64,000 nucleotides of DNA from Christensenellales bacterium (GCA_045130665.1 JBGUQC010000004.1:635217-699216), one strand, 5' to 3'. Shown: positions 40,789 to 53,224, counted from the first letter of the stretch. The notes: generated by a model not told the origin, from the sequence alone. Numbers and translations: made by a program.

Positions 40789-41493
40789 TTAACCGATAAT
40801 TTCTTTGTAATGCGTCAGGATCTGATACAGGCTCTTGCAATCCGCGTACGCCGTATGTGGCAATACGTAATCCAACATCCACCAGTCAACGTCCGCCGTC
40901 AGGTGTATACTTGACTTGTATATATCGTTCCTTATTTGCGGGTGACGTTGCAAAAATCCGTCCATATCAAGCCGCCCTTGTCGTTCGTCGCTTACTTCTC
41001 TGACTTGATCGGCGGTAACGGGGATACGCTCGGTTCTGCCGCCTTTACTGCCAACTCTGCGCCGGACTTTCGATAGGTCTAACTTCCGCTTTGCGAGCGC
41101 AAAGAACCCGTCGAGCGGCGGTTTCAACGTAGGCGTTTTGTCCTCGAACATATACCCGCAGATGGCTTTGACGTACTGTCCGCTTTGCTTGTCGTCAAGT
41201 AAGGTAAGCGCGTCGTAAAAGTTCTCTTGAAAGGTAAAGTGTTTCATCCGTCTATTCAGTCCCGCGCTCTGCTTGCCGCACTTCACGGCGTCTTTGCTCT
41301 CTTCCAATACGTCCACGAGATTGTCCCAATAGAAACGCTCTTTGCCGTCCGTGATTTCAGTCACAGGCTCATCGGTGAACATGAAGGCGCACATCCGCTT
41401 TGCCATTCGTCCCGCTTCTTCGTCTGTTAAGCCGTTCAGTATCTCGGCGTAAAAGTCGTAGAAGGGGAATTGATTGATTTGTCTTTCTTCCAT
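40789..41493 (-). CDS. Conserved MGE protein with an internally duplicated helical module, function unknown
   Basis: Module A is FPFYDFYAEILNGLTDEEAGRMAKRMCAFMFTDEP and module B is FTFQENFYDALTLLDDKQSGQYVKAICGYMFEDKTP. Strong AAGGAGG RBS. Confidence 0.45.
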   Translation of the reverse strand: MEERQINQFPFYDFYAEILNGLTDEEAGRMAKRMCAFMFTDEPVTEITDGKERFYWDNLVDVLEESKDAVKCGKQSAGLNRRMKHFTFQENFYDALTLLDDKQSGQYVKAICGYMFEDKTPTLKPPLDGFFALAKRKLDLSKVRRRVGSKGGRTERIPVTADQVREVSDERQGRLDMDGFLQRHPQIRNDIYKSSIHLTADVDWWMLDYVLPHTAYADCKSLYQILTHYKEIIG

Positions 41494-41849
41494 TTACTTC
41501 CTCCTTATTTGTGTTTTTGTTTGCCGCCGTTTAACGACCGTCGGCACGTCATTCAGTTGTGCATACGCATCACCTCCCGTTTGATTGATTCGCCCACAAA
41601 AGGGCATAAAAAAGCCGCCGATATGTCCTACCGCCGACTTTGATATTTGTTGTTCAGTTGTGGTTGTCGCTTTCTTTATTACGTCATCAATTACATCTCC
41701 TTGTCAGATTCATAGCATACGAAAACGGAAGTCTTGTGCAGACTCCCGCCTTTGTTGCGTTATTCAGTTTGTCGAGCGAAACGTTTATTCCCCTCTATAA
41801 TATAGCCAGGAGAGCGTTGAAAAATCGTACCCCCTGTTAAAAATTCCGA

Positions 41850-42434
41850 TTATTTGCCGAAAAGTACCTTTAATAAACGCAGTTGTGCTAATTCTTCTTC
41901 AGTTTGTTTTAAGGCGCGCTCGCGCTCTCTCTTACGCTTTCGCGCTTCCTTTCTCTTCTGCCGTTTCTTCCCTTTCTTGGCTTCGATGGCTTGCAAACGG
42001 AGTTTTTCGAGGTTCTCTTCCGCTTTCAGAATGAGTTTGCGGACGGCGCCTTCCGTCACGCCCATCTCTTTGGCAATATCGACTTTCTTCATTTCAAGAT
42101 ACTTGAACTTGAAGTAAGCTTGCGCCTGCCGCGCCGTGAGCCGCGACTCCAACCATTTCTGTTTCCGCTCCAGTCGCTCGTCTTCCATCTGAGCCAATTC
42201 TTCTTCGAGTTCTTCTTCTTCGCGTTTCTCCCACACGGTCTCAATATCCGAATTAGGATCGGCGAACTCAAAACCCGCTTCTTCGAGCATATCCAAAGAA
42301 ACGTGCCGCCGCGTTTCTTTCCGGTTCACTTTCTGCTCGTATTTCTCAAGCTCGTAGAACACTTCCGCGACTTCGTCCGTTACTTCCAATTCTTCTTTAT
42401 GCCCATCGGCAAAGGTGTATAAAATCGTTTTCAT
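41850..42434 (-). CDS. Sigma-70 region-4-like HTH protein
   Basis: LTARQAQAYFKFKYLEMKKVDIAKEMGVTEGAVRKLILKAEENL is a region-4/LuxR-type HTH. It is followed by a Lys/Arg/Glu-rich tail. Confidence 0.55.
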   Translation of the reverse strand: MKTILYTFADGHKEELEVTDEVAEVFYELEKYEQKVNRKETRRHVSLDMLEEAGFEFADPNSDIETVWEKREEEELEEELAQMEDERLERKQKWLESRLTARQAQAYFKFKYLEMKKVDIAKEMGVTEGAVRKLILKAEENLEKLRLQAIEAKKGKKRQKRKEARKRKRERERALKQTEEELAQLRLLKVLFGK

Positions 42435-42450
42435 TTTATCGATTATTCAG

Positions 42451-44781
42451 CTATTTTATCATTATAATTGCGCCAGTATATGTATCTATTTTGTATTTAA
42501 TTTCTATATTTAAGATGACATACTCTTTATGTAATGCTCTTGCAACATCTTCCCTTGACATAAAAATGCTTTTATAGACATATTGACCATCAGGACGTTT
42601 ATACTTTTCAACTTCTTGTTCTAGATTTTCTCCGTCCAAATCATCGGCCTCAAACTTTACGATGTTACAATTAAAAGAGAATCCATCTTTTAAAATGAAT
42701 ACCGGCTTAAAGAAAATGTGGCTCTTAATCTTTTCTGCTTTTTCCATTTTCTTTTGATAAGATTGTTTTATCTCCTCATCTTTAATAGCATACCAATGAC
42801 GAATAGCTCCGCCATTAACGTACTGAATGTTCTTTGTCAGTAGATCTTTTGCATGTTCATCAAAAAGGTTTTCTCTTTCTATAATTTCTACATAATCATT
42901 TTCAATTTTAGTCCCTATTTCATGCAGAATTCCCCGAACGAATGAATCAATGATAACTTCGTCAAAATTGATCGCATCTGATGCTCTTTCGCACAAAACG
43001 GAAAGATATCTTGATTGTTCGTTTTTAATGTCTATAGCTTTATTAAAGCCCCATTCTTCCTCAACTTTACTTTCTATAGCAGGACCATATTTGTTTTCTA
43101 TATCCCTATTGCTGACTTTAGATGCTTGTTTAATCGTTTCCTCCAACTCATCCTTTTTCAACTCATCTAAATACGATTTAAAAGTATGTTCTCTTTCTTC
43201 CAAATTAATAAAAGCATCAAATACCGTTTGGTCTAATGAATAAAAGCCTACCATTTTTATCATTTTTTCAGAAGGGTGAAAACTCATGCCATCAAAGCAC
43301 TGTTTTTCAAACTCTTTTAGGTGAAAACTTATTTTCTCAAACAAACTCTTGTAATCATAATCATATATCTTCTCACTCAAAAACAGAGTTGTCAAGAACC
43401 AATCTGAAGCAAAATTCTCATCCAAAACAACGCTGTGCATAAATCCACTATAAAGCATAAATTCTAAAATAGAACTGTTTTCATTGAAAATTGTCATAAA
43501 GTCATTATAATTAGCGGCACAATTTTGCACATAGAACTTGAACATATTATTCCAAGAAACTATCGCTGTATTATCGGTAACCCCTGAATAAGCCATGAAG
43601 TCCTTAATATGCTCTTTTACAGTCTCAGTGGTATCTATCTCGCATTCTGCCAAATAGTATAAATACATACTTATAAGAGCAAACATTGTGGTTGATAACG
43701 AATCACTCCCTAGCATAAAATAGTTGACTGAATAATGCTTCCTAATTGTTTCCAGCAGATAAAAATCATTATATTTGATAGTAGTAGACAGGATTGATAG
43801 AATAACAGCTTCCGTAAAACAATCTTTTGTGCTTAAAGTCTCCTCATGTTTATTATAAAAAGACAATAAACCAGCAATAAATTCGGCTGTTTTTTCTCGA
43901 GATTGCGTATTCATCAACAATCTATAGATTGTCCTAGAAACATAATGTTTGCAGTTTGTTATTTCATCACCAATTATTGTGTAGATGTCAAAGTTCCACC
44001 ACAGAATATCCGAAACCGAATCGGTTAAAGCACGAGCAACCGTCTTAAATTCCTTATGATCGTTTATTGTATCAAGATCGAATGATGTTTTTTGTAGGTA
44101 ATCTAAAAGAGAATACAATACCTTTTTGTTATATTCGGGATAATCATCCTCTTTTAGCGCATCATATACAACACTAATATTCTTATCTTTTAACTGAAAA
44201 GAAACAGCTTTGTCAAAATCTATAGACAAAGGATCTGTTGCCTTTAAGGGAACGATGAATCTATTTTTGATGATTTTTTGCATGGCTTTTTCACTTGCCA
44301 TCATATATGGAATTTCCATATACAAAATATAAATACAAAAAATAAAAATCGCCAATGTAATACCCATGCACAATACCATTTGAGAGCATAAGTAAAAAAT
44401 GACATCCAAGAATAATGTGCTAAACGATATTATAGCACAAGCCCTCAGTGAGAAATGCTTGTCTACACGCATAGAGTATAGTTTACTTACTGTAATTCCG
44501 AATTGCTCATTATGTTGCAAAGAAACAGAAATACCCAAGATCGATACTATACAACAGACTATAGCCGCTATAACTTGACAAGAAATGCCTATTGCATTAA
44601 CAATAGATTCGCAACCATTCAACCAACGAAAGTGTTGCTCTATTATATCTAACACTATTGAAACAACGAGCAATATAACTGTAATTGAAATAATGAAATA
44701 GAATGAACCATTCTTTATTGCAGGAAACAACAGTTCGCTGCCTTTATTGTTTGAGTTTTTCTTTTCTTCCGTATCTCCCAT
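42451..44781 (-). CDS. 776-aa protein: four N-terminal TM helices plus a ~600-aa cytoplasmic domain with no recognisable motif
   Basis: Long uninterrupted ORF that starts 4 nt after the helicase-MTase stop. I found no Walker, PLD, HD, TIR or SIR2 motif. Composition is AT-rich, unlike its neighbours. Confidence 0.6.
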   Translation of the reverse strand: MGDTEEKKNSNNKGSELLFPAIKNGSFYFIISITVILLVVSIVLDIIEQHFRWLNGCESIVNAIGISCQVIAAIVCCIVSILGISVSLQHNEQFGITVSKLYSMRVDKHFSLRACAIISFSTLFLDVIFYLCSQMVLCMGITLAIFIFCIYILYMEIPYMMASEKAMQKIIKNRFIVPLKATDPLSIDFDKAVSFQLKDKNISVVYDALKEDDYPEYNKKVLYSLLDYLQKTSFDLDTINDHKEFKTVARALTDSVSDILWWNFDIYTIIGDEITNCKHYVSRTIYRLLMNTQSREKTAEFIAGLLSFYNKHEETLSTKDCFTEAVILSILSTTIKYNDFYLLETIRKHYSVNYFMLGSDSLSTTMFALISMYLYYLAECEIDTTETVKEHIKDFMAYSGVTDNTAIVSWNNMFKFYVQNCAANYNDFMTIFNENSSILEFMLYSGFMHSVVLDENFASDWFLTTLFLSEKIYDYDYKSLFEKISFHLKEFEKQCFDGMSFHPSEKMIKMVGFYSLDQTVFDAFINLEEREHTFKSYLDELKKDELEETIKQASKVSNRDIENKYGPAIESKVEEEWGFNKAIDIKNEQSRYLSVLCERASDAINFDEVIIDSFVRGILHEIGTKIENDYVEIIERENLFDEHAKDLLTKNIQYVNGGAIRHWYAIKDEEIKQSYQKKMEKAEKIKSHIFFKPVFILKDGFSFNCNIVKFEADDLDGENLEQEVEKYKRPDGQYVYKSIFMSREDVARALHKEYVILNIEIKYKIDTYTGAIIMIK

Positions 44782-44785
44782 ATAT

Positions 44786-47700
44786 TTACTCCATAGGTTT
44801 GATCATCGCCTCGATGAAAGCGATTTCGGATTCATCGAGGTTGTATATAGCGTATAATTGCTTGTCGATCTCGGGAACAGACTTCGACCAATCAATATCG
44901 GACTTGGCGGTAAAGTCTTGCATGGGAACAAACTTCCAGACTTTTTTTGTATTGTCTTGGGTGACTTTTAATATGCCCAACAATGTCCTTGCAAATTTCG
45001 ACTTAATATATTTCAAAACAGCTTCGGCTTCTGATTTCGAAGATGTTTCTCCCGCAGAAATATAGGTTTCGGTATAGCCGATCAACGGCGAGCCGATCAA
45101 CGGCGTAGATAACACTTCTCCAATTGCGCCCGATCCATTTGCTTTAGGAAACATAACTTTATACTTGTATAGATTATCTATTGGCGCCAAGTAGTCTTTC
45201 CTAAACCACCTATACACTCTATTGCTCCCAATATTCCCAAGCAATTGAATGTAGTCTTTACCATCATTAGGCTTATCCACTGTAAACAAAGCCGGCATAC
45301 GCTCAAATGCACTGGTTGAGATTCTTCTATCGGATGTTTTCTTCATCTCTTCAGGATGTTCTTCGTAAACTAAATCAGAAAACCTATATTGACCTCTGTT
45401 CAAAATAGTATCCGCGAAACTCTCGGTTGTTATAGCCCAAACTTTATTCTTGATGCTGTTTAACTCTTCATAGGAACAATACATTCCTATTGCGCCAAAG
45501 TTTGTCTTTGAATCTCTGTATGTAATTGCCACGCCACCCTTGATATCTACGTTGGGAAATACCTCGGAACTATCAGAAGTATAATACAAAACTTTGAAGT
45601 GTTCGTCCGAAAGAACTTTTTCATTCCAACTTGAAGGCGTTGCACCGGCATTGAATAAGAAACGAGCAGGCGTTATAAAACTAACTTTTTCTGACAACCT
45701 AAACGCAACATCCATGAACAGGTGATATATCGGTTTATCATTAACCGAACTTGCAACCGCTTCTTGATACGGCGGGTTTCCTACTACTGCGTCGAATTTC
45801 ATTTCTGCTACTCCTTTATTCCAATAACTGCCTCTCGTGACTTTTGCGCGGAATTGTTCCGGTTTCTCTTTTAGTTGGTTGATTAAGTCCTCAAAATAGT
45901 GGGCGTTTGCCTTTGTGCCGGAATATCCACAAAGGGTACGAATGGTGATATATTTTGCCATTTCCGTCTTGCAAATAACGAAGACGTTTTCTTTTACGGT
46001 CAAGTTCCATAGTTCGCGTTGTTTTTCGAGCGTCAATTCCTCTTGGCACTCCTCGCAACGCTTACGGTATATGCTGTAGGTGACGTACAACGGATACAAG
46101 CCTGTTTTGGAATTGATCTCCAATATCCGCGCGGAGGTATTGGCGAGCGTATCCGACGTCACTTTGCCGCGATCGACAAAACGAGGTTCTTCTATCGTTT
46201 CCTCGTGGTTTTCGTCGTAGAAATCATACCCGCCCAAACAATCGCTAATGTGCATATTGACGACGCGCCACGGCGTAAGCACCGTTTCTTTGTCGGGATT
46301 CTTGAAAGTAGCAAACAAAGCGGATATCTTTTGCACTCTTTCGGTGGGAGAGAGTAAGTCGGCGGCTTTTGCCAATTGACGGATACGACGACCGGCGGCA
46401 ATGAAGATATCGGCGTCATAATATTTTGCAAACTTTTTGAAAAGTTCTTTGGTGACGCCTTGCCCCTTGTTCTCCTTATCCTTCGACTCGTTCTTGGGCA
46501 TAAACTCTTTCCAAGATGCGTCGTCGATCAGATCGGTGAAGTTGTCGATGGTAATATCCTTATCAATAGGAATGTTCGCGCCGTAAATCAAAAGCGGTAT
46601 GCGTACGGATATGCCGCGCAAAATGGAAATGGCTTTTTGTTTATTATCTTGTTTCTTCTTTTTCTCCTCAAGGAAAGCGATCTCTTCGGGTGTGCGCTCT
46701 TTTTTCGGTTTACGCTCGATTCGTTCCAACTCCTCGTATTCTTCATCGGTAAACCCTTGATTGTTGACGTCAACGGTTTCCACTTTTTTGGATTGTTTAC
46801 TTGCGCCGATGATCTTTTTCAAGTCTTCAAAGTCTTTGAGTTCCAGTCCATCCAACTTCATCAGGTTGTCGTTGTAAATATGGATATCGTCGAAGCCGTT
46901 GCGGACAACCCTATCGGTATAGACGCGCTTGAGTTGTTGCAACAATCCGTCCACGTTATAGGGGAGCATATTGGAGCCTTCCACTGCAATAACGGGGCAG
47001 AAGTTGAGGAACTCGCCCATGATCACTTTATCACTGGATGTATCGCCGGCTCGTGTGGAAAGCCGTCCGGCTTCGGCAACGACTTTCAATGTCCTATCCG
47101 GCGCAAAGTCAAAGACATAGCATTCTTCTTTGATCTTACCGTTGATATTGGCGGGCGACTGCACACGGAAAATGGTCTGCATATAACTGGATGCAGACGT
47201 TGAAAACGTACCCGCAAGCATAAAGACCGCCGTCCATTCGGGAACGGTCACACCTGTAGTCAATCGACCACAAGAAAGAGTGATCGAATACGTTTCGGCG
47301 GGATTATCTCCGAAGGCGTCCTGCACCTTCTTCAACGCTTCGGCAGACTTTTCTTCCTCGTCGCCGCTTCCCGCGACGTTTGCGATATTAAAGTGTTTGA
47401 AAACAGGGTGCTGTTTGAGAAGCGCCGACAAAGCGCGGGCTTCTTTTACGCCCGGAACCATCCACAAAGAGTGACGGAAATAATTGCGATACTCTTCGGT
47501 AGAGTACGGGTAGTTGCTGTTTTCATCCGTCTTGCAAAGGAGATTGAGAAAACTCTCCACGTCGGCTTTGTGTACAAAGTCGCCGACTTTTGCATTCGAC
47601 GGAATCGCTTTGAAGTCCTTCTCGGGTTTTCCCGTCCAAGTGCGGAAGAACTCGTGGAAGTTGAAAGCGGAGTCCTCGGCGTCAATATATCCGGGGATCA

Positions 47701-48823
47701 ATTTATCAAGATTATAGGTGAAGATTTGCAGTTTGGGCAACGTCGCATAAGGATTACTGTCGCCAAAGTGATATTTGTCCCACTCGGCTTTCGCTTTCTG
47801 CTCCATCACATAATCCCACGTATAAATCTCTTGCTCGCTGAACTTGCTGACGATATTGAAGGGCGTACCCGACAATTCAAGAAGTTTCGGCTTCTTGGGG
47901 TGGTCGTTCAAAAGTTCTATAACCGTTTGACCGAGTTTCGTTTGCGTCCCTTCGTGCGCCTCGTCAATGATGACGAAATCCCATTCAATCAAAAACTCCA
48001 GTATGTTTTTATCGAATTTGCCGCCGACCGCTTCACTACCACGCAAATCTTGTATGGAAGCGAAATAAACGAACTTATTGTCGTCCTTTTCTATGAGTTT
48101 TTCAATTGTTTCGCCCTGCGTTTTCGAGCCGAATTGATAATCGGTATCGTAAAAGATCTTTTCAAAATCCTCGAACCAACCTTTACTGACAACGGGGCGG
48201 TGGGTAATAATGATCGTCTTTTGGAAGCCGCATTCCTTGGCGACTTGCAAGGCGGTCAAAGTTTTGCCGAAACGCATTTTTGCGTTCCAAAGCATATGGT
48301 CGTTGGTCTTAAATCTTGCGACCGTTTCTTTAATTGCTTTCTTTTGTTCGGGACGGAACAAAATAGGCGTTCTTCCTGTGGACACTTCCGTTGCCGTTAA
48401 AGATTTTCGACCTTCTTTAACTGCTTTGATCGCATTCTTTGCCGTTTCCAAATCAACGGGGAACCATTCGACGCCTTTCTTTTCATCCTTAAACTCATGG
48501 CGCGTAATGCCTGAGCGGATCAACACGGAATGAACCGCTTTATCAGAGAAAGAACGTAGTTTCTTTTTGCCATTGACCATTTCTTCGCGCACGGCAAGTT
48601 CCGTATACAGCAAATCGTAGGAGATCGCCGCCGTTTGCGTGTATTGGTCAATACGTTTCTTGGCGGCAACGTTTAATTCTCTGCAATTCGGGAAAAGCAA
48701 GTTGGGCGTTTTGTCCGAGCGTAAAGTGGCTTCGCCGATTTTCAGCAAGCCTTTATGTTCTTTGTCGTTTATGCCGAAGACATAAATCAACGTATATGTA
48801 AAGGTTGACGTAAACTGACTCAT
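44786..48823 (-). CDS. Single-polypeptide T5orf172(GIY-YIG-like) / SF2 helicase / gamma-class N6-adenine MTase / C-terminal specificity-like region
   Basis: N-terminus reads LIYVFGIND..GLLKIGEATL...VEWF. Helicase motifs are Walker A RFGKTLTA (GKT 48260-48268), DEAH IIDEAHEG (47954-47965) and LSGTPF. MTase motifs are ETVLTPWRVVNMH, ILEINSKTGLYPLY and VVGNPPYQ (NPPY 45767-45778). The tail is LYAIYNLDESEIAFIE. Confidence 0.8.
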   Translation of the reverse strand: MSQFTSTFTYTLIYVFGINDKEHKGLLKIGEATLRSDKTPNLLFPNCRELNVAAKKRIDQYTQTAAISYDLLYTELAVREEMVNGKKKLRSFSDKAVHSVLIRSGITRHEFKDEKKGVEWFPVDLETAKNAIKAVKEGRKSLTATEVSTGRTPILFRPEQKKAIKETVARFKTNDHMLWNAKMRFGKTLTALQVAKECGFQKTIIITHRPVVSKGWFEDFEKIFYDTDYQFGSKTQGETIEKLIEKDDNKFVYFASIQDLRGSEAVGGKFDKNILEFLIEWDFVIIDEAHEGTQTKLGQTVIELLNDHPKKPKLLELSGTPFNIVSKFSEQEIYTWDYVMEQKAKAEWDKYHFGDSNPYATLPKLQIFTYNLDKLIPGYIDAEDSAFNFHEFFRTWTGKPEKDFKAIPSNAKVGDFVHKADVESFLNLLCKTDENSNYPYSTEEYRNYFRHSLWMVPGVKEARALSALLKQHPVFKHFNIANVAGSGDEEEKSAEALKKVQDAFGDNPAETYSITLSCGRLTTGVTVPEWTAVFMLAGTFSTSASSYMQTIFRVQSPANINGKIKEECYVFDFAPDRTLKVVAEAGRLSTRAGDTSSDKVIMGEFLNFCPVIAVEGSNMLPYNVDGLLQQLKRVYTDRVVRNGFDDIHIYNDNLMKLDGLELKDFEDLKKIIGASKQSKKVETVDVNNQGFTDEEYEELERIERKPKKERTPEEIAFLEEKKKKQDNKQKAISILRGISVRIPLLIYGANIPIDKDITIDNFTDLIDDASWKEFMPKNESKDKENKGQGVTKELFKKFAKYYDADIFIAAGRRIRQLAKAADLLSPTERVQKISALFATFKNPDKETVLTPWRVVNMHISDCLGGYDFYDENHEETIEEPRFVDRGKVTSDTLANTSARILEINSKTGLYPLYVTYSIYRKRCEECQEELTLEKQRELWNLTVKENVFVICKTEMAKYITIRTLCGYSGTKANAHYFEDLINQLKEKPEQFRAKVTRGSYWNKGVAEMKFDAVVGNPPYQEAVASSVNDKPIYHLFMDVAFRLSEKVSFITPARFLFNAGATPSSWNEKVLSDEHFKVLYYTSDSSEVFPNVDIKGGVAITYRDSKTNFGAIGMYCSYEELNSIKNKVWAITTESFADTILNRGQYRFSDLVYEEHPEEMKKTSDRRISTSAFERMPALFTVDKPNDGKDYIQLLGNIGSNRVYRWFRKDYLAPIDNLYKYKVMFPKANGSGAIGEVLSTPLIGSPLIGYTETYISAGETSSKSEAEAVLKYIKSKFARTLLGILKVTQDNTKKVWKFVPMQDFTAKSDIDWSKSVPEIDKQLYAIYNLDESEIAFIEAMIKPME

Positions 48824-49797
48824 CTGTGCCTCCCGTCAAGCAAAGTGACGAACTTTACTTTCTTTCCCTTTTCCCAATCCATAACGTAACAATAAATGCC
48901 GTTATGACGGTTTCTGTTGTTTTTCAAACAGCCTTCGCATTCTTCGATTTTCGGCTCGTCGAATAAAGATAACTGCATTGATTCCATCTTGTGGCAACTG
49001 TTGGGAATGACGAATTTCAGTCCGTCCATCTGCCATATATTCCACGCAAGTATCTCGGCGATCTCGCGCAGGTATTCTCTTATCGGATACACACCGAACT
49101 TGTCTTCGTAGTAGTCGCAGAATGTAAAGAGTAGGTTTTCACGAGCGAGAAGGACGTTATCCCCCTGCCAGTCATAGCCGTAAATGCTCTTATATGCTTC
49201 TTTCGCCCACGCGTACCACTCTTGCTCGCCGTCGGTATTTTCGGAAACAATACGGAGTTTTCTGTCCAATAGCCCGATGCGGTTTTTAACGGGTATCACT
49301 TCGCCCGTAACGGTATCGTAGCGACTGGCAAGATAGGGCGCTTCGCCGCAGGTAATCTCAAGGCGTTGCGCCTTAACGTAGTCTTGCCACGTTTTGCCGT
49401 CGGGGAAGGTCAATTTTTCTTCATTTGTCATCCAACCTTTTTCCGTTTCGGTATTAAAGACGTTTTCATGCCCAAACCAAGCATTGTCGATGAGATTGTT
49501 TTGTTTATTGCATATCCACGATGGCGTGAATACTTCGGCTTTGTCACGGACACGAGAGAGTTGCTCTTGTTTGGTCTTCTCGGTGCGCGGCTTGATGAGA
49601 TTGCCGTTCGCTCCGGTGATGGCATAGACGTCGATATGGTCGTTTTTGCCGTAGCCGAAACCTTTTTGAGAATAGTTATCCGTAGCCCAAATGAGATTCT
49701 TACCCGAAGAATTGTCTTTGAGCAGAAAAGACAAAAGAGATGCGTCCATCTCCAGTATCTTATTCTCTTTTACATCAACTCTAATCTCTTTTGCCAT
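48820..49797 (-). CDS. MTase-fold-like protein lacking a catalytic (D/N)PP(Y/F) motif
   Basis: KAEVFTPSWICNKQNNLID is motif-X-like and RLEITCGEAPYL is motif-I-like (compare M.TaqI LEPACAHGPFL). YGYDWQGDNVLLARENLL is also present, with no NPPY anywhere. The stop overlaps the next start as ATGA. Confidence 0.5.
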   Translation of the reverse strand: MAKEIRVDVKENKILEMDASLLSFLLKDNSSGKNLIWATDNYSQKGFGYGKNDHIDVYAITGANGNLIKPRTEKTKQEQLSRVRDKAEVFTPSWICNKQNNLIDNAWFGHENVFNTETEKGWMTNEEKLTFPDGKTWQDYVKAQRLEITCGEAPYLASRYDTVTGEVIPVKNRIGLLDRKLRIVSENTDGEQEWYAWAKEAYKSIYGYDWQGDNVLLARENLLFTFCDYYEDKFGVYPIREYLREIAEILAWNIWQMDGLKFVIPNSCHKMESMQLSLFDEPKIEECEGCLKNNRNRHNGIYCYVMDWEKGKKVKFVTLLDGRHR

Positions 49798-49877
49798 TCG
49801 TTTTTTATCCTTATTTCTCCTGTCCTATTTTACCACTTTTCGTCGTAAAAATCAATGCCGCCGTAGCCCTACTATGA

Positions 49878-49906
49878 ATAATATCGTATCCATTTTACTT
49901 TGTAAA
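49878..49906 (-). promoter_or_regulatory. Promoter of the RM-like operon
   Basis: On the minus strand: TTTACA (49906-49901), a 17-nt spacer, then TATTAT (49883-49878). It lies about 80 nt upstream of the ATG at 49797. Confidence 0.5.
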
Positions 49907-49993
49907 CCGCCATCTGTCCCAATATGGGTACTCCTTGACTTATTCGTTTCGGAGCATATCAGCTTTCCTATTCCATACAAAGCACTCCCAACT

Positions 49994-50698
49994 CTAAATG
50001 CGTATTGTTAAGCTGTCTAACAAAACCCACTGTGTTTGATTTGAGTAATCAATTGTGCCTTCGTTTGCACAGTCGTTTATATCCATTGCGAATTTCATTC
50101 TGAACGGTTCAGACAAACAGTTTTTTAAGTTTATGATATTCGTCCACAAAGAACCGTTACCGTCGCCGAAACTACATTTCTTCAAATTCTTGTTGTCCAA
50201 CAAAAAACGATTATGGCTTACTTCGTTTCGCAATGCGATAACAGCGTCAAGGTCGCGAGATAGTTTATCAATTTTATTAAGATAAAGAGGGAATAACTCT
50301 TGCTTATCTGTTTCAGGCAACTTTTTCGCTTGCGATATCAATTGCCCGAACGTTAGGGAAGATAACGCGCTGAAAAAGCCATCGCCTGAATCCAAGTAAC
50401 GTTGTAACTGTAAAGTATGTATTATTGCTCCACTATTATCGCTATATTTGTTTGAAATAAACGCGCGAATGCTTTCTTCCAAAAGACCAATATATTTATA
50501 AAGAACACGACGTATCCGTTTATCGTAGCGGAAAGCGGTGGCAATTTCGGCATAAGAAACTTTTTCACCGGAAAGGCTTTCCAGGTGTTGGCGAACGTGA
50601 TCGTGTTCGTCAATGCCACGGTATTGAAGATAATGAACCGACTTCTTTTTCTCTTCTTCGGTTATTATTATTTTTTCCCAAAACTCTTCGTACGTCAT
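49994..50698 (-). CDS. Abi_2 (AbiD/AbiF-like) HEPN-domain protein
   Basis: FRYDKRIRRVLYKYIGLLEESIRAFI plus IALRNEVSHNRFLL. The latter contains the R-x4-H HEPN motif, R157..H162, at 50213-50230. Confidence 0.7.
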   Translation of the reverse strand: MTYEEFWEKIIITEEEKKKSVHYLQYRGIDEHDHVRQHLESLSGEKVSYAEIATAFRYDKRIRRVLYKYIGLLEESIRAFISNKYSDNSGAIIHTLQLQRYLDSGDGFFSALSSLTFGQLISQAKKLPETDKQELFPLYLNKIDKLSRDLDAVIALRNEVSHNRFLLDNKNLKKCSFGDGNGSLWTNIINLKNCLSEPFRMKFAMDINDCANEGTIDYSNQTQWVLLDSLTIRI

Positions 50699-50705
50699 AA
50701 TAAGG

Positions 50706-51326
50706 CTAATCGCAAATCTCGTTGATTGCTTGGATCAATATCGAAAACGAAGCAATATCATCTTGCTTGGACAAGTGCTGATTCTTCAACTTAAGATATC
50801 TCGCGCGCAAATCATTCCACTTTCCGGCGTCCTTTATCGCTTTGATTTTTGTTTGGTAATTACGCGAATTACGAACTTCATTCCAGTAATACTGTCCGGT
50901 CGCTTTATTGTGTACGATCTTCAGATAGTTGCCGTTGTTTCCTTCGCACATAATGGCAACGTCGAAAGAAAAGTGTAAGCGGTTCCCGAAAATCAACTTC
51001 GACGTTATCACCGAAGTAGAGTTTTCCGCAGGTTTAAAGCCCAAATCGGGATTCGTTTCGTTAAACGCTTGAATGAACAGTTCCTTTATCTTTTTGGGAT
51101 TGTTTATCAGCCCTTGCTTGTCCTTTTGTAGAATAAAATTGTAGTCCAGATCAAACTCGCCATTCTCTCCGTTTTGGGTGATAAGGTTATTGCTTCCACT
51201 ACCGATCAGAACGAATTGAAAAGTAAAGTAATCTTTAAGCCAACTCTGTTGAACGTTCTTAATAATGGTTTCGCAAGCGTTTTTTAATTCTCTTAATTCC
51301 TGTTTATCGTATACGTAATCAAACAT
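50706..51326 (-). CDS. Minimal Pol-beta-superfamily nucleotidyltransferase with a helical C-terminal region
   Basis: VLIGSGS-x13-DLD, with DLD at 51144-51152, gives the GS...DxD signature. A third acidic strand reads HFSFDVAIM. AGGAGA RBS. Confidence 0.65.
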   Translation of the reverse strand: MFDYVYDKQELRELKNACETIIKNVQQSWLKDYFTFQFVLIGSGSNNLITQNGENGEFDLDYNFILQKDKQGLINNPKKIKELFIQAFNETNPDLGFKPAENSTSVITSKLIFGNRLHFSFDVAIMCEGNNGNYLKIVHNKATGQYYWNEVRNSRNYQTKIKAIKDAGKWNDLRARYLKLKNQHLSKQDDIASFSILIQAINEICD

Positions 51327-51349
51327 TATTATTCTCCTAAAACATTTTT

Positions 51350-53224
51350 CTACCTTTTATCTTCTTTATAGCAAATTTCAGATTGTTTTCTGTAGAAAGC
51401 AATCCCAAGTTTCAAAATGCTATAGCCCTGCGCTTCAAGCGGATAGGCATATTCTTTTTCGTCGATTTGATTGAGCGCTTCTTGCGACAACGCGCAGAGT
51501 TCGTTCGTAATCGTATCGGCATTTTTACTTGTCGTAGACAGCACCTTAACTTCGATGATGATGGCGGGCATATTTTTATTGAATGGAACCATTTGGATAT
51601 CGAAACGACCATTGCCGGATTCCCGATTAGACGAAACAGAATACAAATCATTCATCACTGCGTACAGTCCCAACATCAAGCCGTGATAAAAGCCTTCGTT
51701 CGACGTATCGAAGAAACTTACCGTTTGTTTGAGATAGCGTTCGAGATGTTGTTTCATTCCGTTTATATCGTTATCGATAATCGCTTGTTGAACAGACGAC
51801 GCCGTAGATTGAGCGCGTGAGTCGCCGATCGCCGAAAGAATCTCTTTTCCATAGATCCGTTGGATCTCTTTGTTGGGAATGGAAACATAATAGAATGACG
51901 TTCCCGCGACGTTCGGACTCTTGTTTAGTTTCAAATAGCCGGCGATGAGCAGAAAACTGAATATCGTTTGAGGATTGTCCTTGATCTCGGGATAGATCAC
52001 CGAAGTGTCCACGTCGGCAAGAACCGACTTCCCTTCCAACAAGGCTTGTAACTTTTCTTTCGTTTCTACGGGCGATTCCAAAACGATCTGACGAATGATA
52101 TCATTGCTACCCGTGTTTTGCCAATAGGCTTGCGGTATACATTCGTTTTTGATATAACTGATGACTGACCACGGATTAAACATCTCGTTGGAGCCGAAGC
52201 GATACCCGTCGTACCATTCGCACACTTCGCCGAACTTGCTTTTCTTGCCATAAGCGGCGAGAAGCGTTTTGACTTCTTCCTTCGTAAAACCGAAGTACGT
52301 GCTATAACGCTCTTTCAGTACCGAATTATCGATGAGATTATTCATGCCGCTGAAAATGCTTTCTTTTGCGACGCGCAAAATACCCGTCATAAAACCGAAT
52401 GAAAGATGTGAATTATCTTTGAATCCGCCCGAAAACAAATTGCGCATAAACACAATGATTTTCTCATAATACTTTTTCGTATATCCTTGTTGAATCGGAG
52501 TATCGTATTCGTCGATGATAATGACAGGTGCTATATCGTAATAGTCATGCAACATCTTCGACAACCTTGCAAGTGCTTCGGTCAATTCTACTTCCGTTTC
52601 ATTGCCGGACAATAGTTTGTTGTAATAAACGATCTCGTTTTTATCCGCTTTCGCATTCTCGCCGATAATTTCTTTATGGCGAATAAACTCTGTTTGAAAC
52701 AGCGACTTTATTTTAGCAAAGGTATCTTCCCATGTATCGAACTTAACGTCCTTAAAAGAAAGGTAGATCACGGGATATTTCCCTTGATAAGAGGTGTATT
52801 TCTCTCCGTATGCCCATATTCTTTTATCGGCAAAATAACGAGACGTATCCTCATCGCTCTTCTCAAAAAACACGCGAAGCATATCCATCGTCAATGTTTT
52901 TCCGAAGCGACGGGGGCGCGTAAACAAGCTGACCTTGGGGAGATCGTCCAATATGTCTTTGATTAGATCGGTCTTATCCACGTAATAATAATGACTAACA
53001 GCTTCTTTGAAATCTGACACGCCGATAGGAAGCGGCTTCCGTAAATTTATCAAAGCTCCTCTTTTCGTTCTCCCGTCTACCGGCTTTTCCGCATTCACAG
53101 GTATTAACCACATTCCATTCTCTTTTTTCGCTCCAATGATTTTACCATCACGACAAAGCATTGTGATTCTGCGTTCTTCTAATTCCCATTTTTCAGCAGC
53201 TTCTTGCACATTAATGAAATCCAT
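51350..53224 (-). CDS. HTH + AAA-ATPase_like + PD-(D/E)XK (PDDEXK_9-like) protein
   Basis: N-terminal excisionase/MerR-like HTH (INVQEAAEKWELEERRITMLCRDGKI). Then PIGVSDFKE....YYYVDKT...TRPRRFGKTLTMDML (Walker A). The C-terminal GNGRFDIQM....AIIIEVKV is a D...ExK nuclease motif. Confidence 0.75.
   Translation of the reverse strand: MDFINVQEAAEKWELEERRITMLCRDGKIIGAKKENGMWLIPVNAEKPVDGRTKRGALINLRKPLPIGVSDFKEAVSHYYYVDKTDLIKDILDDLPKVSLFTRPRRFGKTLTMDMLRVFFEKSDEDTSRYFADKRIWAYGEKYTSYQGKYPVIYLSFKDVKFDTWEDTFAKIKSLFQTEFIRHKEIIGENAKADKNEIVYYNKLLSGNETEVELTEALARLSKMLHDYYDIAPVIIIDEYDTPIQQGYTKKYYEKIIVFMRNLFSGGFKDNSHLSFGFMTGILRVAKESIFSGMNNLIDNSVLKERYSTYFGFTKEEVKTLLAAYGKKSKFGEVCEWYDGYRFGSNEMFNPWSVISYIKNECIPQAYWQNTGSNDIIRQIVLESPVETKEKLQALLEGKSVLADVDTSVIYPEIKDNPQTIFSFLLIAGYLKLNKSPNVAGTSFYYVSIPNKEIQRIYGKEILSAIGDSRAQSTASSVQQAIIDNDINGMKQHLERYLKQTVSFFDTSNEGFYHGLMLGLYAVMNDLYSVSSNRESGNGRFDIQMVPFNKNMPAIIIEVKVLSTTSKNADTITNELCALSQEALNQIDEKEYAYPLEAQGYSILKLGIAFYRKQSEICYKEDKR

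Follow-up and report, generated by a model that had tools for sequence, protein, structure and literature searches.

A candidate two-subunit, ATP-dependent restriction-modification system with a T5orf172/GIY-YIG-type head and a split N6-adenine methyltransferase

A 64,000-nucleotide stretch of a Christensenellales bacterium genome (GCA_045130665.1, JBGUQC010000004.1:635217-699216; herein the window, at its full length) carries on its minus strand, at 44786-49797, two genes that probably form one intact, ATP-dependent restriction-modification (R-M) cassette. The large gene (44786..48823, minus strand) is an intact ATG-to-stop open reading frame (ORF) of 1345 aa plus stop; its product runs from a T5orf172 head through a superfamily 2 (SF2) ATPase and a linker to a domain resembling the N-terminal half of a methyltransferase (the N-half-like domain), a catalytic half with the NPPY motif, and a target-recognition domain (TRD). 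The small gene (48820..49797, minus strand; 325 aa) lies upstream, its stop overlapping the start of the large gene by 4 nt, and encodes what appears to be the S-adenosylmethionine (SAM)-binding N-terminal half of a gamma-class N6-adenine (N6A) methyltransferase with a Cys/His tail. A reading made from the DNA alone (herein the sequence-only reading) had already claimed the 1345-aa fusion; ORF listing and translation bear it out, and coordinate arithmetic places its motifs exactly (GKT, aa 186 through 188, 48260-48268; DEAH, aa 287 through 290, 47954-47965; GNPPYQ, aa 1015 through 1020, 45764-45781; aa 1 through 135, 48419-48823).

Public data hold a protein identical to the 1345-aa product, and more than 8000 clusters (90% identity) are homologous to it at full length with the same Pfam content; the ORF is thus not a chance feature. 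Pfam calls ResIII at residues 156 through 322 (E 4e-17) and Eco57I at 945 through 1089 (E 1e-25), as the sequence-only reading expected. PADLOC matches just the C-terminal third, to models derived from REBASE, and no NCBIfam model matches either the large or the small protein. A sequence search of PDB chains with the whole 1345-aa protein gave no usable match. Residue conservation was taken from an alignment of 33 members (A3; 40 to 75% identity), across which the catalytic and motif residues of the large subunit are invariant, and from an N-terminal alignment of 18 members (A1).

The head (48404..48823, minus strand; aa 1 through 140) belongs to the T5orf172/GIY-YIG clan, an assignment that is clear at the family level, suggested by fold, and marginal for the window protein alone. 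Searched on their own, the N-terminal 150 residues of the window protein score 19.3 bits against Pfam T5orf172 (E 0.0017), just below the gathering score of 20. Among 18 family N termini (48 to 65% identity), 17 match T5orf172 (best E 1.4e-7) and 14 match MUG113 (models PF10544 and PF13455). The AlphaFold2 (AF2) model of the head is confident (predicted local distance difference test [pLDDT] 89), and its top Foldseek matches in BFVD are T5orf172 proteins (probability 0.97 to 1.0, E 7e-3). Foldseek against the PDB returned no significant match to solved GIY-YIG nucleases, a PDB sequence search with the N-terminal profile gave nothing usable, and Pfam finds no PD-(D/E)XK family at the N terminus. 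The claim that the head is of T5orf172/GIY-YIG type rather than Mrr/PD-(D/E)XK is supported by the family Pfam hits, the fold-search matches, and the catalytic residues.

Those residues are Y14 (in LIY), K28-I-G30 (KIG), R57 with Y61 at +4, D94, H98, and E119-W-F. Y14, K28/G30, R57, D94, H98, and E119-W120 are invariant or near-invariant in the 33 members (Y14 and E119 invariant, R57 at least 90% conserved), and Y61 is invariant in the 18-member alignment. By motif position, Y14, R57 (with Y61 at +4), and E119 would correspond to the Tyr of GIY, the Arg, and the metal-binding Glu. The catalytic set is thus conserved for Tyr, Arg, and Glu, and the Tyr of YIG is replaced by Lys, which is usual for T5orf172. 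The same Tyr/Arg/Glu set is present in the ICP1 phage protein Odn, in which T5orf172 is a proven nuclease that the E180A substitution inactivates (PMC8263062). Searched with a profile, 1.84 billion representatives yielded 552 relatives of the head; fragments aside, almost all are 1320 to 1385 aa long, a few reaching ∼1500 to 1570 aa, and those sampled carry the same ResIII and Eco57I content. The head fusion is therefore old and stable.

Behind the head lies an SF2 (ResIII-type) ATPase or translocase (46904..48376, minus strand; aa ∼150 through 640), defined by Pfam and by motifs invariant in the 33 members: GKT186-188, DEAH287-290, SGT318-320, T522/G524, and Q549..R553.Q555. These motifs and the ResIII match agree with the helicase read earlier from GKT, DEAH, and SGT(P); Pfam does not call Helicase_C in the window protein. 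The translation and conservation profile then delineate a post-helicase region (46304..46903, minus strand; aa 641 through 840) that comprises a Lys/Glu-rich linker, visible in the translation at ∼aa 690 through 740 (claimed earlier at ∼aa 690 through 735), and a coupler-like segment; the region has no assigned family.

In the methyltransferase part of the large protein, the N-half-like domain (45824..46303, minus strand; aa 841 through 1000) contains TPW850-852 and a motif I in which Lys replaces the first Gly (E902-x-N-S-K906-x-G908-L-Y; EINSKTGLY in the window), and the acidic residue of motif II is not conserved (C951-K-T-x-M-A). The segment earlier read as motif I (ILEINSKTGLYPLY) is indeed conserved, as a noncanonical variant and not as canonical motif I. 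The catalytic half follows (45524..45823, minus strand; aa 1001 through 1100; FDAVVGNPPYQ), supported by Pfam and by conservation, with N1016-P-P-Y1019 invariant in the 33 members. For the gamma-class N6A methyltransferase of the first reading, Eco57I and NPPY speak in favor; the motif I in cis is noncanonical, and no motif II acid is conserved there. The TRD and C-terminal domain (44786..45523, minus strand; aa 1101 through 1345 plus stop) contain a hypervariable segment (1101 through 1215), a match to PADLOC PDLC03375 (1219 through 1344), and a conserved C-terminal tail (DKQLYAIYNLDESEIAFIE). The tail had been attributed to TaqI_C; Pfam makes no such call, and the models that do match it are PADLOC methyltransferase models derived from REBASE.

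The small protein would supply what the large one appears to lack in cis. It carries motif X (AEVFTPSW), a TaqI-like motif I (RLEITCGEAPYL), and motifs II/III (IYGYDWQGDNVLLARENLL, with D209), followed by WNIWQMDGL and the Cys/His tail; E147, G151, and D209 are retained, and NPPY (motif IV) is not present. PADLOC PDLC03390 (MTase_II) matches it over its full length (E 2e-125), no Pfam or NCBIfam model does, and one relative is labeled "restriction endonuclease subunit M" at NCBI. The lactococcal counterpart encoded by plasmid pCV56A is a 231-aa "N-6 DNA methylase" with canonical motif X (GEVFTPQWMVKKML), motif I (FLEPAAGDGNFL), and motifs II/III (IYGIEFLADNLEIARSRML) and no motif IV; it passes Pfam N6_Mtase at model positions 20 through 105 of 311. 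Based on its own motifs, the absence of NPPY, and this homolog, we assign the small protein as the SAM-binding N-terminal half of a gamma-class methyltransferase. PDB sequence searches with profiles of the small protein and of natural fusions (below) gave nothing usable, and Foldseek matches of its AF2 model (pLDDT 54) were discarded as meaningless. Nor is it a recognizable paralog of the N-half in cis: hhalign against the C-terminal 746 aa of the large protein gave a probability of 0.25 and no similarity.

The two genes are shown by sequence comparison to be inseparable across phyla. The same pair with the same overlap occurs in every homolog context retrieved (loci L001 through L006), the downstream gene differing each time; the small gene is the conserved partner there and in most of 160 further loci, and where the flank is long enough, the next gene downstream encodes a large-protein homolog in nearly every locus. 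Homologs of the small protein number at least 598 genome and 472 viral-contig matches, the genome count coming from a scan with the small-protein alignment in which a single genome stood for each species. Identity across the genomes is 55 to 86%, and the taxa include Clostridia, Bacteroidales, Bacilli, spirochaetes, Campylobacter, Eggerthellaceae, Opitutales, Gastranaerophilales, and a Methanobacteriaceae bin. Cassettes of ∼45% identity are found on 89 PLSDB plasmids, mostly of Enterococcus and Lactococcus. Lactococcal homologs bear the accessions WP_014570254 and WP_014570255, and Treponema pectinovorum ATCC 33768 also has homologs. In the Lactococcus lactis CV56 plasmid pCV56A (L087, 2824-7876) the large subunit has 1452 aa, with an extra N-terminal extension of ∼145 aa ahead of the T5orf172 head; the half-methyltransferase of the lactococcal and enterococcal plasmids is shorter (231 aa) than that of the window and is canonical. 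ORFs of ∼350 aa lie between the small and large genes in two loci (L078, 990-2030; L083, 10990-12063). They were not counted as components; relatives of the L078 ORF occur in three other loci, never at the same position. Judged by eye, the sequence of the L078 ORF resembles RhuM-family proteins, which are known hitchhikers in R-M operons, including those of Type I.

HMM (hidden Markov model) parsing of 160 related loci distinguishes four layouts. Type A, that of the window and of the majority of loci, pairs the small gene with the head-motor-linker-N-half-like-NPPY half-TRD fusion. Type B, represented by at least 12 viral-contig loci, combines the small gene with a separate NPPY/TRD gene (339 to 364 aa) and a gene for an R protein of 1098 to 1140 aa. 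Type C (L047, L059, L074, L152, L155, L165, L166, and L170) fuses the small protein directly to MKFDxVIGNPPYQ and the TRD (633 to 711 aa), alongside an R protein. The R proteins of types B and C start with a T5orf172 domain (CYAYTT...WTKIGFTERDVETRI...DFHAYL...EWF), have an N-half-like domain at their end (NQIFTPK..V..MVD / FADLYMKSGLY / VYGLAPTEIIY), and terminate ahead of any NPPY; the K(S/T)GLY signature is common to these ends and to EINSKTGLY of the window.

Type D is methyltransferase only. In Tenacibaculum phage PTm1 (L089; NC_049340.1), gp279 is a homolog of the small subunit (E 8e-131) and gp277 is the C-half alone (344 aa, E 2e-67), with only a helix-turn-helix (HTH) gene between them; gp277 begins MKFDIIVGNPPYQ, as do the stand-alone NPPY-half genes of the three-gene variants. 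Protein FNU4_28 of Fusobacterium phage FNU4 (L090) fuses the small-protein core to the NPPY half, and Pfam Eco57I (positions 9 through 171) spans the junction. Both phages thus carry the methyltransferase halves without motor or nuclease, plausibly for self-methylation that evades this R-M family. Comparison of the layouts shows the NPPY/TRD half as a movable module, found in these sequences on either polypeptide or alone. The small protein plus the C-half looks like a working methyltransferase, and the N-half-like domain in cis looks like a docking or pseudo-enzyme module. The large protein had been read earlier as a self-sufficient single polypeptide; that view is not supported, since a 4-nt-overlapping, 325-aa half-methyltransferase gene accompanies the large gene in nearly all related loci of sufficient flank, and the phages with the small protein and the NPPY/TRD half alone also count against it.

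A second class of large subunit makes up ∼40% of genomic partners (22 of 56 full-length proteins). Its helicase region is 23% identical to that of the window protein, compared with 47% for the NPPY/TRD half. The head of this sister class (GRVEPHIYAF...NYLKVGDTYRPV..RL.EW...FRD..VH.FL...EFF) does not match the class-1 head profile; two of six heads tested pass Pfam T5orf172 (33.4 and 25.9 bits; gathering score 20), and equivalents of Y14, R57, and E119 are present both here and in the type B and C R proteins. PADLOC PDLC03626 (REase_MTase_IIG) spans the sister class over its full length (1157 bits) but, in the window protein, just the C-terminal third; the architecture is therefore already present, labeled Type IIG, in resources derived from REBASE. 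A decayed cassette of this class (L051, 9250-11528) retains an intact small gene and has lost the motor by internal deletion: past the class-2 T5orf172 head come stops, and immediately behind them the post-NPPY C-half.

Among close homologs, pairwise identity is 0.39 over residues 1101 through 1215 and ∼0.8 elsewhere; this hypervariability is what a TRD would be expected to show. Two related loci (L126, 10957-13019; L128, 3966-6007) have a spare, inverted C-half cassette just downstream of the large gene. Inverted repeats of 30 to 45 nt (30 nt at 100%, 45 nt at 84%) that encode DAIIGNPPYQ bracket the C-half/TRD of the large gene and the inverted spare copy, an arrangement that suggests specificity switching by inversion exactly at the boundary of the NPPY module. 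Spare C-half copies are also present in L129, and the window itself has no such invertible repeats. In L104 through L120, many near-identical viral or mobile-element contigs (IMG/VR) from different samples, the large gene is split into ORFs of 1079 and 244 aa around the TRD, which could reflect a frameshift, TRD replacement, or a widespread disrupted allele.

Around the cassette, the intergenic region upstream of the small gene (49798..49993, minus strand; 196 nt) contains sigma-70-like hexamers (TTTACA-17-TATTAT, 49906-49878) and is likely, by this consensus match, the operon promoter. Farther upstream on the minus strand are an Abi_2/AbiD-like gene (49994-50698), a 206-aa ORF without a family (50706-51326), and a gene for a protein with HTH, AAA-ATPase_like, and PDDEXK_9 domains (51350-53224). 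This trio (49994-53224) also precedes the cassette in L001 and L002, where the large subunit is 80% identical, and not elsewhere; the surroundings look like a defense-island neighborhood. Downstream, a 776-aa ORF (42451-44781, minus strand) starts 4 nt past the stop of the large gene. It has several hydrophobic, membrane-like segments toward its N terminus, no Pfam, PADLOC, or NCBIfam family, and no homolog in the first 86 related loci; its guanine-cytosine (GC) content is ∼0.32 to 0.34, compared with 0.44 to 0.49 in the R-M genes. It is probably a separately acquired gene, possibly cotranscribed with the cassette. Beyond it are genes, also on the minus strand, for a 194-aa sigma-70 region-4-like protein (41850-42434) and a DUF6291 protein (40789-41493); the syntenic relative L001 has neither, pointing to an inserted mobile element or prophage remnant at 40789-42434. 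The 776-aa, Abi_2-like, 206-aa, AAA/PDDEXK_9, and sigma-70 region-4-like proteins were rejected as partners, being absent from related loci bar one closely related genome. After the cassette in two otherwise different contexts (L001, 14275-16145; L006, 14470-16341) lie genes for a ∼368-aa protein with a weak GMT-wHTH match and a ∼254-aa radical SAM protein, a pair that may be another associated module.

Taken together, these data make one reading of the cassette the most likely, and we hold it to be probable: an ATP-dependent R-M enzyme of two subunits that has a GIY-YIG nuclease and whose methyltransferase is split. The large subunit would comprise a T5orf172 endonuclease head, an SF2 DEAH motor, a linker with the degenerate N-half-like domain, and an NPPY half with its TRD; the NPPY half would be part of an Eco57I-type N6A methyltransferase, of which the small subunit supplies the SAM-binding N-terminal half. 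We infer that the small subunit and the C-half assemble into an active methyltransferase that marks an asymmetric site read by the TRD. At an unmodified site the motor would be licensed and ATP spent on translocation or communication along the DNA, by analogy with Type ISP, Type I, or Type III enzymes, and the GIY-YIG head would then nick or cut the DNA. The N-half-like domain in cis probably serves to dock the restriction module onto the methyltransferase.

Several points weigh against this proposal. The AF2 model of the small protein is poor, and its fold assignment rests on motifs and family hits. The T5orf172 score of the window protein itself falls just under the Pfam cut-off. The N-half of the large subunit, which Pfam Eco57I covers from its first model position, could complete a methyltransferase in cis, and the sequence would fit long-range translocation and a Type III-like switch alike. 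In the literature we found no biochemical characterization of any family member, and a related split system, dnmA-yeeB-yeeC of Bacillus subtilis, showed no restriction activity (PMC9973331); the Vibrio counterpart of that cluster was protective.

The alternatives differ in which part of the cassette they reinterpret. One keeps all the parts and changes the mechanism, the ATPase being a Type III-like switch or short-range remodeler and the head cutting near the site, in effect a Type IIG enzyme with a helicase. The PADLOC label of the sister class (REase_MTase_IIG), a best Pfam ATPase match to the Type III Res family, and a motif VI of Q..R.Q rather than Q..GR..R all point that way; the database labels are automatic, however, nothing in the sequence separates the two modes, and the order head-motor-methyltransferase-TRD is that of Type ISP translocases. 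We consider it unlikely, if worth keeping in view. Somewhat less probable again is a self-contained, Type ISP-like large protein that methylates and cuts alone, with the 325-aa protein as an independent accessory such as a methyltransferase-like factor that regulates or serves the second strand. The large protein has in cis motif X, a loop resembling motif I, segments resembling II/III, and NPPY, and Eco57I covers 945 through 1089 from model position 1. Yet the motif I in cis has Lys for its first Gly and no conserved motif II acid accompanies it, and the small protein, without motif IV, cannot methylate alone; natural variants and a phage methyltransferase fuse it directly to the NPPY half, and PTm1 retains just these two parts, the small protein and the C-half.

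That the T5orf172 head is noncatalytic, binding DNA or regulating while interference proceeds without cleavage (BREX-like) or through another, recruited nuclease, seems improbable to us. The first description of T5orf172 was as a domain that binds DNA, a domesticated T5orf172 protein that does not cut has been reported (CapR of the PLE phage satellite), and no significant match to solved GIY-YIG nucleases was obtained; on the other hand, class 1 conserves Y14, R57 (with Y61 at +4), and E119, class 2 and the type B and C R proteins have equivalents of them, and no other nuclease gene is conserved beside the cassette in related loci. Least probable is a relic, decaying or domesticated, whose one remaining role is that of an epigenetic methyltransferase, as proposed for B. 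subtilis DnmA. Relics do exist, as the internal deletion in L051 and several frameshifted loci attest, and the B. subtilis dnmA-yeeB-yeeC cluster gave no phage protection. Both window genes, however, are full length with all conserved motifs, they adjoin Abi-like and PD-(D/E)XK genes, and the TRD is under diversification.

Within the two-subunit R-M enzyme, a more specific mechanism can be imagined, although we rate it as a long shot. The NPPY/TRD half might pair with either of two N-halves, their exchange acting as a switch between modification and restriction: the SAM-binding half of the small subunit would give the methylation-competent state, and the degenerate K(S/T)GLY half carried by the motor protein would let the target adenine be read without methylation and license the ATPase and head. 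If true, a split Rossmann fold would here couple restriction to the sensing of methylation in a new way.

The family is among the more abundant R-M-like cassettes, spread through gut and rumen Bacillota and Bacteroidota, spirochaetes, and Lactococcus and Enterococcus plasmids, and has seemingly escaped study; with it, ATP-dependent restriction would come to include a GIY-YIG nuclease. Its natural split methyltransferase occurs in fused, permuted, three-gene, and phage methyltransferase-only forms, a ready construct set for the coupling of methylation to restriction, and the phage copies of both halves look like an anti-restriction strategy against this family. Present labels ("Type IIG", "subunit M", "Eco57I domain protein") obscure that the two genes are one system. 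We found no publication that characterizes the family or notes the split methyltransferase, and the published lactococcal defense literature holds no description of the system. The sequence-only reading, which knew of no characterization of the architecture, is to that extent supported, but the architecture is not new to databases, where PDLC03626 (Type IIG) covers the sister class: it is already catalogued automatically, yet not understood.

Compared with known systems, the family shares with Type IIG and IIL enzymes (Eco57I, MmeI) the fusion of a nuclease to an NPPY methyltransferase of the Eco57I family that ends in a TRD, and the C-terminal LY..Y.L...EI.FIE tail. Type IIG enzymes have a PD-(D/E)XK head and no ATPase, being fusions that act without an NTPase, whereas here a conserved DEAH motor stands between a GIY-YIG head and the methyltransferase. 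Like Type I and III R-M systems, the window system would be multisubunit, its motor subunit docking onto a core of methyltransferase and TRD, and related loci share RhuM-type hitchhikers and invertible specificity cassettes with Type I operons; it has no HsdS or Mod architecture, and it differs both in nuclease family and in where the methyltransferase is split. Split methyltransferases are known, as in M.AquI alpha/beta, whose catalytic domain is divided over two polypeptides, but these are 5-methylcytosine (m5C) enzymes without motor or nuclease modules.

Closer in content are the dnmA(yeeA)-yeeB-yeeC clusters, which combine the same three activities (an N6A methyltransferase with TRD, an SF2 helicase, and a T5orf172/GIY-YIG protein), are likewise presumed to restrict, and also occupy defense islands. 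There the activities reside in three proteins with a complete, MmeI-like methyltransferase, whereas in the window family head and helicase are fused and the methyltransferase is split; the likeness to YeeB and YeeC is one of domain content. Clusters of an MmeI-like methyltransferase, an SF2 helicase, and T5orf172 were noted by Morgan et al. (2009), and Sisakova et al. (2013) write of relatives that "utilize different endonuclease families (e.g. GIY-YIG)"; both refer to GIY-YIG/helicase relatives only in passing.

The nearest parallel in layout is Type ISP (LlaGI, LlaBIII), with which the window family shares the N-to-C order of nuclease, SF2 ATPase, coupler, gamma-class N6A methyltransferase, and TRD; Pfam, PADLOC, and conservation support this resemblance, as the sequence-only reading had it. 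Type ISP enzymes methylate one strand of an asymmetric 6 to 7 bp site and cleave after the head-on collision of two translocating enzymes, and both systems are presumed to act in defense through an asymmetric site and ATP-dependent communication. Searches of all PDB chains by phmmer and with the 33-sequence profile, among which we presume the LlaGI and LlaBIII entries to be included, revealed no similarity to either enzyme, a result compatible with remote homology of single domains. With no Mrr head, no single polypeptide, and no detected similarity to LlaGI or LlaBIII, the system is Type ISP-like in layout and not a member of Type ISP; the second of these differences is suggested by comparison across loci. 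Where Type ISP enzymes use an Mrr-type PD-(D/E)XK nuclease and unite all functions in one polypeptide, the window system has a T5orf172/GIY-YIG head and would entrust the SAM-binding half of its methyltransferase to a second polypeptide.

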